From contig JAPPMG010000053.1 of the NCBI GenBank assembly GCA_028819215.1, positions 30,280 to 94,279 on the forward strand: a stretch of 64,000 nucleotides of DNA. The letters run 5' to 3'. This stretch comes from Bryobacterales bacterium (GTDB lineage: Bacteria > Acidobacteriota > Terriglobia > Bryobacterales > UBA6623). Shown in pieces: positions 1 through 3,931 of the stretch. A model generated the notes under the pieces. The model searched no databases, was not told where the DNA came from, and worked only from the letters and a program-made list of their open reading frames with translations. A program made the position numbers and the translations under genes. The number at the start of each line of letters is the position of its first letter. Within the stretch, counting starts at the first letter, position 1.

Positions 1-179
1 GGACACTCCACGAGTGGAAACTGCACGCGATTGCGAACGGTCCGCTTCTCCGTCGACGCTGCGGCTAGGCCGAGCCGAAGCAGGTTGGCAACGACTTCCC
101 GTAGCTTGAGGTTCTCCTCAGCCGCCTGAACCTTGACAGCCCGCATCAGTTCGTCTGGCAGGTCAAGAGTAGTCTTCAC
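1..179 (-). CDS. Ribbon-helix-helix (VapB-type) antitoxin, N-terminal part; the gene runs off the left edge of the window
   Basis: Not in the ORF track because there is no stop in the window. Own translation from GTG at 179: VKTTLDLPDELMRAVKVQAAEENLKLREVVANLLRLGLAAASTEKRTVRNRVQFPLVEC. The KTTLDLPDEL..RA.K..A opening is typical of RHH antitoxins that precede PIN toxins. Third-codon positions are GC-rich in this frame. Confidence 0.6.
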   Translation of the reverse strand, partial: MKTTLDLPDELMRAVKVQAAEENLKLREVVANLLRLGLAAASTEKRTVRNRVQFPLVEC

Positions 180-511: not shown

Positions 512-2239
512 ATGAAGGATCCGGTTGCCTGGTACGACAAGCACGCAAGCACAGTTGCGGCGCGGTACGAGTCCGTTAAACCGGACTCCCTGTATAGCTG
601 GCTAACCGACCTGCTGCCCGAACCGCCAGGTCTCGTACTCGATGTGGGTGCCGGATCCGGGCGCGACGCTGCCTGGCTCGCCGCCAAGGGCTACGAGGTG
701 TTCGCCGTCGAGCCTTCGAAGGCAATGCGGCGGGTCGCCAGGATGCTGCATCCCACTGCCTCTGTGCGCTGGGTCCACGACTCCCTTCCGAAGCTGGACT
801 ACACGGTGCGATCGGGGCTCTCCTTCGATGTGATCCTGCTCAGCGGAGTATGGATGCACGTCCCTCCGGGGCAGCGTCCCAGGGCCTTTCGCAAGCTTGT
901 CAACCTTCTCCGGCCAGGTGGCATCATTGCCATCTCCCTGCGGATCGGTCCCGAGGAACCCGAGCGCGGAATGCACGGCGCGGACAGTTCGGAAATCGAG
1001 TCGCTAGCGAAGAAGCACGGGACGATCGTCCATCGTGCAGTGGAGCGCGAGGATCTCTTGGGCCGCGACGGGGTCCGGTGGAAGAACTACGTCCTGCGGT
1101 TTCCGGACGACGGAACAGGCGCGCTGCCCCTGCTCCGGCACGTGATCCTGAACGACGACAAGAGCTCGACCTACAAGCTCGGCCTCCTACGCTCGATTTG
1201 CCGCATCGCGGATGGCTCCGCCGGGCTTGTGCGGCTCACTGAGGACGACAAACTCTCGATTCCGCTTGGGCTGGTTGCGCTGACCTGGCTGAGGCTGTAC
1301 AAGCCGCTGCTCGCGGCTAGCTTCCCACAGAATCCGAAGAATGTTCGCGGAGGAATCCACCTCCGGTTCGCCCGCAAGGATTTCGACAGGCTCGTGGCAT
1401 TCTCCCATCTGGACATGAGAGTGGGGGTTCGGCTCGGCCCGACCGACGCGGTAGCGCTCCACGGCGCTCTCCGCGATGCGGCCGAAACGATTCGGATCAT
1501 GCCCGCCCACTACATGACGTTCCCGGACGGGACTCCTATCCTCCCGGTGAACCGCACTGCGAGGCTCCCTCGGGCGCTAACACCCGACGTCATCGACGAA
1601 CCGTACTTGCGCAGTTTCGGTGAGATGCTCGTTCCATGGAGAATCTGGCAGGCCGTGCAACGCTTCGCAGTCTGGATCGAGCCGGCGCTAGTGGAGGAGT
1701 GGATCCGACTCATGCAGCGGTATGCGGAAACGCAAGGCCGAGACTTGCCAAGGGATCGCGCCGCTGCAGCGATGGTATGGTCCGACCCCACGCGAGACGT
1801 TGGGATCGCAAAGCGGCAGGCGCGAGATCTGCTGGAGTCCAGCAAGCTTTACTGTGTTTGGAGCGGCAAGAGGCTCTCAGCGAGGTCGCTCGACCTCGAT
1901 CACTGCTTTCCTTGGTCAGCTTGGCCGTGCTCGGACCTCTGGAATCTCATGCCCGCTAATCGGTCGGTGAACCAGAACGAGAAGCGAGCGAAACTGCCAA
2001 GCGCGACGCTTATGCTGGCCGCCCGTGACCGCATTATGTCTTGGTGGGAGGCGGCGTACGGGTCGTCAAGCCCTCTGATTCGAAAGAGGTTCGAACTTGA
2101 GGCTGCGTCCAGCTTGCCAGGCGTCCTGCCATTGGACGCAGATCTCGACTCGTGTTTCGAAGGAGCCTTCGCACAGCGCACCAAACTGCGCTACGACCAG
2201 CGCGTACCGGAATGGTCGGGAGAGAGATACGTCGGGTAG
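512..2239 (+). CDS. Fusion protein: class I SAM-dependent methyltransferase (N-term), unassigned ~250-aa region, HNH nuclease (C-term)
   Basis: 575-aa ORF. SAM motif I is VLDVGAGSGRDAAWLAAKGYEVFAVEPS, followed by DVILLSGVWMHV and LLRPGGIIAISL. The C-terminal CVWSGKRLSARSLDLDHCFPWSAWPCSDLWNLMPANRSVNQNEKRAKLP is an HNH core. Confidence 0.75.
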   Translation: MKDPVAWYDKHASTVAARYESVKPDSLYSWLTDLLPEPPGLVLDVGAGSGRDAAWLAAKGYEVFAVEPSKAMRRVARMLHPTASVRWVHDSLPKLDYTVRSGLSFDVILLSGVWMHVPPGQRPRAFRKLVNLLRPGGIIAISLRIGPEEPERGMHGADSSEIESLAKKHGTIVHRAVEREDLLGRDGVRWKNYVLRFPDDGTGALPLLRHVILNDDKSSTYKLGLLRSICRIADGSAGLVRLTEDDKLSIPLGLVALTWLRLYKPLLAASFPQNPKNVRGGIHLRFARKDFDRLVAFSHLDMRVGVRLGPTDAVALHGALRDAAETIRIMPAHYMTFPDGTPILPVNRTARLPRALTPDVIDEPYLRSFGEMLVPWRIWQAVQRFAVWIEPALVEEWIRLMQRYAETQGRDLPRDRAAAAMVWSDPTRDVGIAKRQARDLLESSKLYCVWSGKRLSARSLDLDHCFPWSAWPCSDLWNLMPANRSVNQNEKRAKLPSATLMLAARDRIMSWWEAAYGSSSPLIRKRFELEAASSLPGVLPLDADLDSCFEGAFAQRTKLRYDQRVPEWSGERYVG

Positions 2240-2368: not shown

Positions 2369-2653
2369 TCAACCGTCGGCGCGCTCAAATCCGAACGTCA
2401 GCCGCATACCTGTTGCTTCGGCATATCGGCGCAGGGTCCTGACCGACGGCGAAAACGTGCCTCCCTCCAGCCGCGCAATCGCCGACTGTGTGGTGCCGAT
2501 ACGCGCTGCCAGTTCGGCTTGTGTCAACTTCGCGGCCGTGCGGGCATGGACCATTGCCTCCACCAACGCATACTCTTCATCTGCCCGCACGTATTCCTCA
2601 CGGAACGCCGGGTCTTTCATGAAGCGCTCTTTCAGATCCTTTGATTTCGCCAT
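2369..2653 (-). CDS. XRE-family helix-turn-helix protein, HigA-like antitoxin
   Basis: Start moved to the ATG at 2653 (MAKSKDLKERFMKDPAFREEY...). AKLTQAELAARIGTTQSAIARLEGG is a classic HTH_XRE motif. Size (~94 aa) and layout match HigA-type antitoxins. Confidence 0.8.
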   Translation of the reverse strand: MAKSKDLKERFMKDPAFREEYVRADEEYALVEAMVHARTAAKLTQAELAARIGTTQSAIARLEGGTFSPSVRTLRRYAEATGMRLTFGFERADG

Positions 2654-2767
2654 GTATACACCTGCTTCATTCGCTCCTGGGCTGCGGCTAACGCCTGCCG
2701 CGGCATCCAGCGCATCGAGAAACACGCCCTTACTGAGACTCTAACCGGCGAGCAGCCAAGTACGACA

Positions 2768-3931
2768 TCATTCGACTATCGCGTCAGACCAAAGCTGCTC
2801 GAGAAAGCGCTCCCATGGCAGAATCCAAATCCCGTCGTTCGTACGCCGGGCGTCGCGCTCGTTGCACACTACTATCGCCTGCCGTGGGCTATGCTCGTCC
2901 ACGTATGCGCGGATGCTCCTCAAATCAGGCGGATGCACACGCGTGCTCCCCTTGACCTCGATCGCAACCTCGCCTTCGCGCCCGAGAACGAAATCACACT
3001 CCAGCCCAGATTTGGTGCGCCAGAATCGCAGGGGAAAGTCCCGTTCTCGATAGCTACGGTAGGCGAGCAGTTCCATGAGCACCAAGTGCTCAAGGGCCCG
3101 CCCGAACTCCTGCCCCGCGGGCCGTTCGATATTGCGACCCATCAAGTGGCCCGCAACGCCAACATCGAACAGGTAGAACTTGGGCGCACGCGTGATGACC
3201 TCCCGCGAGCGTCTCCGACTGAACGGCTCGAGCAGGGTGCCAACCAGCGTGTCGACGAGTATCTGAAAATACTCCCGAACCGTCTTTGAATCGACGCCGC
3301 AATCCCTAGCGATGTTGCTGGAATTGAGGAGTTCGGCGTGGCTGAACGATAGTGCGTCGAAGAACCGCGAAAACGCGGGAGCGTTCCTGACCAACCCCTC
3401 GTCGAACACCCCCTCCTTCAGATAGTCGTCGACGTAGCCAGCGAGTGCGCGCCGGTGCTGCTTCGTGTCGTAGTGCTGGGGAATCAGCCCGCGGTTCAGT
3501 GCTCGCAGCAGATCGAAGTCGGGAATCTCCGCATAGGTCAGTGGATGCAGACCGAAGCGCCAAGCCCGCCCTCCGAGCATGTTGGCGTGCCCCCGCTTGA
3601 GCTTCCGCGCACTGGATCCGCAAAGTACGAAGCCGAGGCCTTTGTTCTCTATCAGTCGGTGGGCCTCGTCGAGGAGTGCTGGCACCTTCTGCACTCCGTC
3701 GATGATGATTGGGCCGGTGAAATTAGTGCCACTCAGGGCATCCAATTGTTCGGCGAGTGCCCAAGGGCTCCGGGTAAACTCCAGCAGCAACCTGGTGTCC
3801 AGCAGGTCAAAGCGCACCGCATCCGGAAATCGCTGGCGAAGCAGCGTGGACTTGCCGGTCTTGCGCGGACCCCAGAGAAAGGCCGACTGCCCTTTGGGAA
3901 GTTCTAGGCTGAGGATTCTCTCGTAGCTCAC
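2768..3931 (-). CDS. AAA+ ATPase with C-terminal DUF4143 (AAA_14/DUF4143, COG1373-type)
   Basis: 387 aa with a GTG start. Walker A is LWGPRKTGKSTLLRQ, Walker B-like is FVLCGSS. The C-terminal WRTKSGLECDFVL...EVAIEVK resembles the restriction-endonuclease-like DUF4143 end of this family. Confidence 0.85.
   Translation of the reverse strand: MSYERILSLELPKGQSAFLWGPRKTGKSTLLRQRFPDAVRFDLLDTRLLLEFTRSPWALAEQLDALSGTNFTGPIIIDGVQKVPALLDEAHRLIENKGLGFVLCGSSARKLKRGHANMLGGRAWRFGLHPLTYAEIPDFDLLRALNRGLIPQHYDTKQHRRALAGYVDDYLKEGVFDEGLVRNAPAFSRFFDALSFSHAELLNSSNIARDCGVDSKTVREYFQILVDTLVGTLLEPFSRRRSREVITRAPKFYLFDVGVAGHLMGRNIERPAGQEFGRALEHLVLMELLAYRSYRERDFPLRFWRTKSGLECDFVLGREGEVAIEVKGSTRVHPPDLRSIRAYVDEHSPRQAIVVCNERDARRTNDGIWILPWERFLEQLWSDAIVE

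Follow-up and report, generated by a model that had tools for sequence, protein, structure and literature searches.

A methyltransferase-HNH nuclease fusion family first seen in a Bryobacterales genome, a candidate mobile conflict module

The window analyzed here is a stretch of 64,000 nucleotides (nt) from a Bryobacterales bacterium of the phylum Acidobacteriota (GenBank assembly GCA_028819215.1, contig JAPPMG010000053.1, positions 30,280 to 94,279 of the forward strand). It possesses a gene for a protein of 575 amino acids (aa) in which an S-adenosylmethionine (SAM) dependent methyltransferase (MTase) is joined through an unassigned middle domain, here called X, to an HNH nuclease. The protein is interpreted as a mobile conflict or defence nuclease with dedicated MTase control, whatever the sub-mechanism, with a probability of about 0.65-0.7. 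This reading is based on the pairing of the MTase with several unrelated reader-nucleases and with a membrane protein, on carriage by plasmids, on a patchy distribution and on neighbourhoods of conflict genes. The MTase and X-HNH probably act in concert, as shown by their occurrence in fused, split and translationally coupled form. X-HNH is at the same time an autonomous module, since a MTase-less sister family of about 385 aa is found on plasmids and mobile elements.

Gene and domain organization

The open reading frame (ORF) at 512-2239 of the forward strand starts with ATG and codes for 575 aa. Exactly the same protein is deposited in NCBI as MDE0108253.1 (metagenome-assembled genome (MAG) of Bryobacterales, Acidobacteriota), and more than 120 full-length homologues of about 575 aa were returned with 54-99% identity. 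On the basis of these homologues and the exact NCBI entry, the gene is real and not a chance ORF. The protein is composed of a class I SAM MTase (aa 1-195), the X domain (aa 196-445), an HNH core (aa 446-500) and a helical tail. The AlphaFold2 (AF2) model built from 44 homologues is confident and compact (predicted local distance difference test, pLDDT, 88.7; predicted template modelling score, pTM, 0.85). Mean pairwise identity in the divergent set was 36% in the MTase, 35% in X, 47% in the HNH and 32% in the tail, pointing to similar rates among the domains. The features of the gene, all on the forward strand, are as follows.

512..2239, +, whole gene, 575-aa MTase-X-HNH protein (ORF list, homologues, AF2 model); stop codon at 2237-2239
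512..1096, +, class I SAM-dependent MTase domain, aa 1-195, TehB/Methyltransf_11-25-like (Pfam, PDB sequence and Foldseek matches)
635..673, +, SAM-binding motif I VLDVGAGSGRDAA, aa 42-54; D44, G46, G48, G50, R51 and D52 invariant in alignment A1 and in the stand-alone family
836..859, +, post-beta-4 segment LLSGVWMH, aa 109-116, at the position of motif IV and not of DPPY type; V113, W114 and H116 invariant
1097..1846, +, X domain, aa 196-445, unassigned, mixed helical and beta, likely a nucleic-acid reader; no Pfam, PDB-profile or Foldseek relative
1121..1204, +, X signature ALPLLRHVILNDDKSSTYKLGLLRSICR, aa 204-231; D215, K217, Y221, K222 and L225 invariant in the fused and MTase-less families
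1847..2011, +, HNH (His-Me finger) core of HNH_4/Cas9 type, aa 446-500 (Pfam HNH_4; PDB profile match to Cas9 HNH)
1898..1984, +, catalytic segment D463-H464 ... W477-N478 ... N487 ... K491, aligning with Cas9 DxDH ... N ... N ... K
2012..2236, +, C-terminal helical tail, aa 501-575; predicted helices 505-517, 521-534 and 545-561 (AF2)

No family covering the whole protein was found among Pfam, PADLOC and NCBIfam, and its database annotation is just "methyltransferase". In the literature searched, neither the MTase-X-HNH architecture nor its accession numbers are described. Scans for promoters and terminators around the gene detected nothing.

An earlier sequence-only reading of this DNA had described a 575-aa ORF with a small-molecule-type MTase at its N-terminus, an HNH core close to its C-terminus and a middle part that could not be assigned, and had stated that this combination matches no known restriction-modification (R-M) or defence family. 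The ORF was recovered at 512-2239 (+) and all five peptides quoted from it are present, at aa 42, 132, 207, 257 and 460. The three domain descriptions agree with the profile and structure searches given below, no curated family spans the whole protein, and the three-part architecture, proposed there as a point to check, recurs in at least 572 species genomes. Two features had been overlooked, namely the autonomy of X-HNH with its MTase-less sister family and the recurrence of the MTase as a partner of several nuclease types.

Stand-alone methyltransferases and their partners

Reciprocal search recovered a family of at least 882 stand-alone MTases of about 200 aa. The window MTase domain aligns end to end with this family (alignment A10). 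Identity is 31-50% to the members paired with the various partners described below, and 31-45% (E-values of 5e-33 to 1e-51) to those situated beside nucleases. It shares the family residues Y8, Y19, LDxGxGxGRDA, E67, P68, R73, W87, D90, VWMH, R144, G146, R152, D181, R185 and W190. Judged by this alignment, the true family of the window domain is that of the ~200-aa nuclease-associated MTases, defined here, which are not described in the literature searched. When IMG/VR was scanned with the family alignment, only stand-alone ~200-aa MTases were obtained, 34-42% identical to aa 7-198; matches of the fused query there were likewise stand-alone MTases only, and no X-HNH was found.

In several genomes the two halves of the window protein, or parts of them, are coded by separate genes. 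Split forms and related pairs are listed below with the locus labels used in this analysis. The X motif is recognisable in the split-gene protein of L160 also.

L160 407-2196 (metagenome), split form, MTase of 204 aa followed by X-HNH of 392 aa with a 4-nt overlap; hhalign probability 96.6%, ~278 columns
L121 1739-3539 (Burkholderia), split form, divergent X-HNH 56 nt downstream of the MTase; hhalign probability 92.4%, ~278 columns
L115 4001-5601 (Streptomyces), MTase and 336-aa nuclease with a 4-nt overlap; hhalign 92.2%, covering only the pre-HNH helix and HNH region, ~108 columns
L122 4001-7927, L114 873-4597, and L159, L176, L182, L189, L190, L191 and L198, stand-alone MTase abutting or overlapping a SauUSI-like gene

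Another partner is a SauUSI-like enzyme with PLDc_2, helicase and DUF3427 parts (PADLOC mREase_IV, E 2e-119), which is paired with a stand-alone MTase in at least 10 loci. It is the next gene after the MTase in Spiribacter (L122) and in seven to eight metagenome loci, with gaps of -4 to 44 nt, while in Marinobacter the order is reversed, the SauUSI-like gene being upstream of the MTase with a 4-nt overlap. In four metagenome loci the fused MTase-X-HNH gene itself overlaps with a SauUSI-like gene upstream of it, and in three more such a gene is adjacent. Altogether, there are at least 15 related loci where a SauUSI-like gene overlaps or abuts a MTase or MTase-X-HNH gene; no MTase accompanies SauUSI itself (PMC3141236). 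Among the 76 loci nearest to the clade of the window protein, a SauUSI-like neighbour was found in just one or two, and there is none in the window. The SauUSI-like copy of Spiribacter carries a Peptidase_S24 insert, with SoFic and SLFN-helicase genes alongside.

Two further partner types were observed. At L199 4980-6724 and L149 28-1606 the MTase is accompanied by a protein in which a part resembling a winged helix-turn-helix (wHTH) is followed by HNH_2. The N-terminal, wHTH-like segment of these proteins, 'SPHK[VI]CM[IL]LAV', is reminiscent of the X helix 'SSTYKLxLLR'. In enterobacterial lambdoid prophages, the gene of a 205-219-aa protein with two to three transmembrane (TM) segments lies upstream of the ~200-aa MTase gene and overlaps it (L097-L109 from IMG/VR; L113; L116-L119). 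This cassette of TM protein and MTase is located next to int in phage phi458 (L113, OP434518 2336-3519, Orf2/Orf3) and beside a NACHT gene in a Klebsiella prophage.

The methyltransferase-less X-HNH family

Search of plasmids by tblastn identified ~385-aa proteins annotated as 'HNH endonuclease domain-containing' in Nostoc, Leptolyngbya, Tolypothrix, Deinococcus and Hymenobacter. Their alignment with the window protein covers aa 196-575, from the first X helix to the C-terminus, at 20-25% identity. D215, K217, Y221, K222, W259, Q273, P331, W379, W397 and the HNH residues are invariant in both the fused and the sister family. The sister family counts at least 975 proteins, all of 380-400 aa, and is not described in the literature searched.

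These proteins are found in the cargo of plasmids and mobile elements together with type III-B CRISPR, NucS-domain, GmrSD_N, HNH_2, AcrVA2-like, UmuDC, PIF1 and YAcAr genes. On plasmids of Leptolyngbya, Nostoc, Hymenobacter and Deinococcus (L083-L087), thermonuclease, Uma2, DUF262, NurA and an XPB-like helicase with DUF790 are situated near X-HNH, beside CRISPR III-B and NucS-domain genes. A shared small upstream partner was considered and dismissed, as five upstream ORFs are mutually non-homologous. An ORF of 84 aa lies just upstream of X-HNH on pRadio3 of Deinococcus radiophilus (L086 5726-5980); its match to Ada_Zn_binding is weak and non-significant (E 0.019), and no more than curious given the possible link to backbone methylation discussed below.

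Distribution and genomic neighbourhood of the fused family

Distribution was derived from a pattern scan of one genome per species, in which at least 572 genomes coded for a relative; several taxonomic labels of MAGs are possibly unreliable. The carriers belong to Acidobacteriota, Alpha-, Beta- and Gammaproteobacteria, Cyanobacteria, Rhodothermales, Myxococcota, Nitrospirota and Actinomycetes. Many of those among L001-L080 are MAGs of sponge symbionts (SB066x bins, Poriferihabitaceae, Porisulfidus, Marinacidobacterium). When aa 196-575 were compared with 1.84 billion representatives clustered at 50% identity, 1358 matches were obtained; the full-length ones are about 555-630 aa long, with X beginning at about residue 200, and the MTase-X-HNH fusion is present in more than 1300 such clusters. 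Beyond its own close clade, the window protein shows 53-60% identity to family members whatever their phylum, and some pairs from different groups reach 72-88%. Nine copies are situated on plasmids, of Roseomonas, Azospirillum, Sphingobium, NGR234 and Pseudoalteromonas.

All-against-all clustering of ORFs within 10 kb in 80 genome loci yielded no conserved operon partner. The largest neighbour cluster, an ABC-type protein, occurs in 20 loci at varying distance. Enrichment in defence islands was judged qualitatively. Neighbours related to mobility and conflict include PIN, HigB, BrnT/A, insertion sequence (IS) elements, AbiEii-like ATPases, mREase_IV, type II MTases and PDC-S01/S27. Directly beside the MTase-X-HNH gene, SspC and/or PAPS_reduct (SspD-like) genes were found in five loci (L033, L034, L036, L067 and L071), in two orientations, in Vicinamibacterales and Marinacidobacterium hosts; SspC matched with E 7e-300 in the scanned copy of L034. 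In L030, L042 and L043 (for example L043 4528-8721 and 12002-13390), a protein of 1333-1398 aa without Pfam or PADLOC match lies upstream of MTase-X-HNH, and a PDC-S27-like ATPase_2 protein lies downstream.

Conservation and predicted structure of the three domains

The MTase domain belongs to the class I clan. Pfam Methyltransf_25, 11, 12 and 23 match aa 30-143 above their cut-offs with E-values of 1e-15 to 3e-12, Methyltransf_25 with 58.3 bits (cut-off 27) and Methyltransf_11 with 57.9 bits (cut-off 21.2). By sequence and fold, the closest PDB entries are cg3271, TehB, UbiG, ChlM and TPMT, all small-molecule or RNA-type class I MTases, and Foldseek probability was 1.00 for TehB, UbiG and cg3271. 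The domain falls short of the narrower families, scoring 19.8 bits against a cut-off of 20.4 for TehB and 15.7 against 26 for TPMT, and far below the cut-offs of the NCBIfam TehB models. Along with D44, G46, G48 and G50, residues E67 and D90 are invariant, and motif I is intact in 74 of the 75 copies from genome loci. Y8, Y19, W114, H116, R144, R152, D181, R185 and W190, located on the substrate side, are invariant across fused and stand-alone MTases. Among 44 representative fused proteins, three (P0122, P0126 and P0218) have degenerate SAM motifs together with an intact HNH.

Signatures of DNA MTases were not detected. For N6-adenine and N4-cytosine enzymes, no [DNS]PP[YFW] was found by regular expression and there was no Pfam match to N6_Mtase, MethyltransfD12 or N6_N4_Mtase. 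For C5-cytosine enzymes, the single 'PC' lies at aa 472 inside the HNH region, ENV is absent by regular expression, and DNA_methylase of Pfam did not match.

The X domain is conserved about as strongly as the MTase (35% and 36% mean pairwise identity, as above). Its most conserved stretch, ALPLLRH-ILN-D-K-SSTYKL-LLR, is positioned at the beginning of a helix predicted at 220-235 in the AF2 model. Aa 196-445 gave no match in Pfam, PHROG, NCBIfam or PADLOC, the Pfam scans covering sub-fragments and 16 divergent members also; PDB sequence profiles A2, A6 and A8 revealed no relative, and neither did Foldseek when a C-terminal part modelled separately was compared with PDB and BFVD. Similarity to SRA, SBD/wHTH, PUA or DUF3427 readers was not detectable by Pfam, Foldseek or hhalign. 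In the case of DUF3427, hhalign of X against this region of a SauUSI-like protein gave no assignment.

The nuclease core is of HNH_4 type. Pfam HNH_4 matches aa 448-496 with 23.2 bits (cut-off 22), rising to 26.1 bits in a scan restricted to the C-terminal part, and all 16 divergent members scanned match it. The PDB profile search identified the Cas9 HNH domain with E-values of 2e-5 to 1e-6, placing D463-H464, N478, N487 and K491 on the catalytic D-H, N, N and K. We take their counterparts in SpCas9 to be D839/H840/N854/N863. Of 38 divergent members, 37 retain the catalytic residues, as do 74 of 75 copies from genome loci. Zinc-finger cysteines in the HNH were considered and dropped, since C465 and C473 vary among the divergent members. 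In the tail, W511, W512, F527, E530 and W568 are conserved. C-termini are frameshifted or truncated in P0208, P0211, P0248 and L127 629-1453, which reflects either decay of these copies or errors of assembly.

Comparison with known systems

The protein was compared with the enzyme classes that it resembles in parts. Like the type IIG/IIL restriction enzymes MmeI and BpuSI, it is the product of a solitary gene and holds a SAM MTase, a possible DNA-recognition region and an endonuclease in one chain. Type IIG/IIL enzymes contain a gamma-class N6-adenine MTase with NPPY/DPPY, a target recognition domain (TRD) and an N-terminal PD-(D/E)XK nuclease, whereas the window protein has a TehB/Methyltransf_11-like MTase without motif IV, a C-terminal HNH and a middle part that is not a recognisable TRD. 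It does not group with them, since its MTase is not of the DNA type and the REase_MTase_IIG models of PADLOC give no match. X-HNH resembles the type IV enzymes McrA, ScoMcrA and TagI in placing a reader-like N-terminal domain before a C-terminal HNH, and the sister family is solitary and on mobile elements; one source even labels a member of it 'McrA'. However, no similarity of X to SRA, SBD/wHTH, PUA or DUF3427 readers was detected, and a fused MTase is not a type IV feature.

Among solved structures, the HNH_4 domain of Cas9 comes closest to the nuclease core, and the D-H ... N ... N ... K segments align. The common part is confined to about 55-70 residues, and the window protein has no RuvC, guide RNA or CRISPR context. 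For aa 1-195 the best sequence and fold matches are TehB, TPMT and cg3271, with motif I 'GxGxGR(D/N)', but the domain scores under the cut-offs of both the TehB and TPMT families. The sole match in the defence libraries was PADLOC mad2 of the methylation-associated defence system (MADS), an operon of eight genes, mad1-mad8 (E 4.7e-20, aa 24-174). According to the MADS preprint, its profiles derive from alignments that HHpred produced with PDB hits. Membership in MADS was dismissed, because mad2 covers the generic MTase fold only, the stand-alone MTases match it equally and the window contains no mad1 or mad3-8. Judged from these comparisons, the protein would work in the manner of fused R-M enzymes or of type IV enzymes with reader and HNH. 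It is not a member of the former class and probably not of the latter.

Genes flanking the fusion in the window

The genes next to the fusion in the window are as follows.

3..179, -, start of a RHH/VapB-like antitoxin ORF, VKTTLDLPDELMRAVKVQAAEENLKLREVVANLL... (translation); runs off the left window edge
2369..2725, -, Xre-type HTH_3 protein, 118 aa, convergent with the gene (Pfam HTH_3, E 4.5e-12)
2768..3931, -, AAA_14 and DUF4143 ATPase, 387 aa, PADLOC candidate PDC-S01 (Pfam; PADLOC E 2.4e-51)

The ORF at 3-179 (-) is one that we take to be a ribbon-helix-helix (RHH)/VapB-like antitoxin. The sequence-only reading had placed the fusion between toxin-antitoxin debris and an AAA+/DUF4143 ATPase. 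Both the antitoxin-like ORF and the ATPase are present, but the former resembles a gene that begins inside the window and is truncated by its edge, and not debris. The Xre gene lies downstream of the AAA_14/DUF4143 gene, the pair is convergent to the MTase-X-HNH gene, and synteny is restricted to the close Bryobacterales relatives L003, L006 and L008. In the search for flanking repeats of insertion type or a target-site signature around the gene, only short matches at chance level were found.

Proposed function and alternative explanations

In the mechanism proposed here, the X domain, with its basic helix and invariant D-x-K-x-x-x-Y-K, would place the protein on nucleic acid and the Cas9-type HNH core would cut it. 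The TehB-like MTase would bind SAM, probably methylate a substrate without sequence specificity, and decide when cutting is allowed. We infer that the target is DNA, that the MTase controls the nuclease and that the protein acts against phages or plasmids. With regard to the control step, gating or sensing is tentatively preferred to classical self-marking: SAM occupancy or the methyl-transfer state of the MTase would license or restrain the nuclease; the same MTase family is paired elsewhere with other effectors. Gating is favoured because variable effectors with a conserved MTase form the usual pattern of sensor and effector. It is favoured also because X-HNH without MTase is viable, because SAM motifs are eroded beside an intact HNH in 3 of 44 members and because neither a DNA-MTase motif nor a TRD is present. 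Such members would be hard to tolerate if self-protection depended on methylation alone. The similar evolutionary rates of the domains, the compact full-length AF2 model and the less confident modelling of the HNH region once the MTase was deleted speak for the proposal as well, although a confidence gap between two models is weak evidence.

The defence or addiction logic suggested by the sequence-only reading stands in part. The context fits a mobile conflict gene, given the plasmids, the toxin-antitoxin, IS, Ssp and restriction neighbours and the split form, but the flanking genes of the window are syntenic in close relatives only. Neither a biosynthetic or housekeeping operon nor a profile match of the whole protein was encountered, and the catalytic residues are kept. 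Several observations weigh against a conflict nuclease gated by its MTase. The nucleases paired with the MTase are complete reader-plus-nuclease enzymes and not simple effector domains. The invariant residues on the substrate side suggest real catalysis on a common substrate rather than mere sensing of SAM. The fused family and X-HNH are absent from 50,697 phage records, the family is absent among the PADLOC v2 models, and housekeeping genes are frequent in the neighbourhood (Opp transporter, sulfatase, nitrate reductase, aminotransferases).

A different use of the same parts would be a non-canonical R-M enzyme in one chain, whose MTase would mark host DNA at an unusual base position or on the backbone and whose X-HNH would cut unmarked DNA. 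Pairing of MTase and nuclease is the hallmark of R-M systems, and a mark of this kind is consistent with TehB/TPMT-like chemistry. The MTase gene comes first and overlaps the nuclease gene in the split forms and SauUSI-like pairs, the MTase is N-terminal in the fusion, its residues for SAM binding and on the substrate side show strong conservation, X evolves as fast as the MTase, and five loci stand beside the SspC/SspD genes of DNA modification. Even so, this explanation is rather unlikely. The protein lacks [DNS]PP[YFW], PC/ENV and a TRD, and a minimal Rossmann domain of 200 aa offers little surface for duplex DNA. The MTase-less sister family is viable, members with degenerate motif I retain an intact HNH, and the prophage partner of the MTase is a membrane protein and no nuclease.

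A housekeeping role, either as a nucleic-acid enzyme coupling modification to processing or repair or as a small-molecule MTase with a DNA-binding and nuclease appendage, would explain the housekeeping neighbours named above, the annotation solely as methyltransferase, the vertical appearance of some clades (85-96% identity) and the small-molecule substrates of the best MTase relatives. It is nevertheless improbable, as none of 76 loci has a conserved operon partner, carriers are patchily distributed and include plasmids, restriction-type nucleases recur as partners of the MTase, which also occurs in accessory regions of prophages, and the sister family resides in cargo regions of mobile elements. 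The same solo gene at variable locations, with plasmid copies and IS and toxin-antitoxin neighbours, might instead be selfish. It would then code for a free-standing homing or addiction nuclease of HNH type, shield its carrier through the fused MTase and persist by post-segregational killing or homing. HNH nucleases are common as homing enzymes, and the frameshifted, decayed copies P0208, P0211 and P0248 fit such a cycle. This explanation has very little chance of being correct, since flanking repeats or a target-site signature were not found at the window gene, the Pfam survey of neighbours brought up no link to introns or inteins, all domains are under strong purifying selection over deep divergence, and the family is absent from phage genomes.

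A wider proposal joins the partners of the MTase. The TehB/TPMT-like MTase family might be the shared core of an unrecognised multi-effector immune family with chemistry or logic new to defence, an idea that is speculative and doubtful as a whole. Its forms would be the MTase-X-HNH fusion, the split MTase and X-HNH, and the MTase combined with SauUSI-like, wHTH-HNH_2 or prophage membrane proteins. The new chemistry could be methylation of a backbone phosphate or phosphorothioate of DNA, or of a nucleotide. Alternatively, the MTase could guard the SAM pool against phage SAM lyases, and X could represent a new class of DNA or ligand reader.

Significance of the family

The analysis defines three further objects: the uncharacterised ~250-residue X domain with its D-x-K-x-x-x-Y-K helix, the plasmid-borne X-HNH family of ~385 aa, and the ~200-aa MTase which accompanies SauUSI-like enzymes and is positioned beside the integrase in enterobacterial lambdoid prophages. 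If the MTase-X-HNH protein is a working defence or conflict module, it would be a widespread single-gene system, present in at least 572 species genomes and abundant in sponge symbionts and soil Acidobacteriota. Its MTase, which lies outside every class of DNA methylases, would then point to a new chemistry of nucleic-acid modification or to a SAM-linked control of a nuclease.

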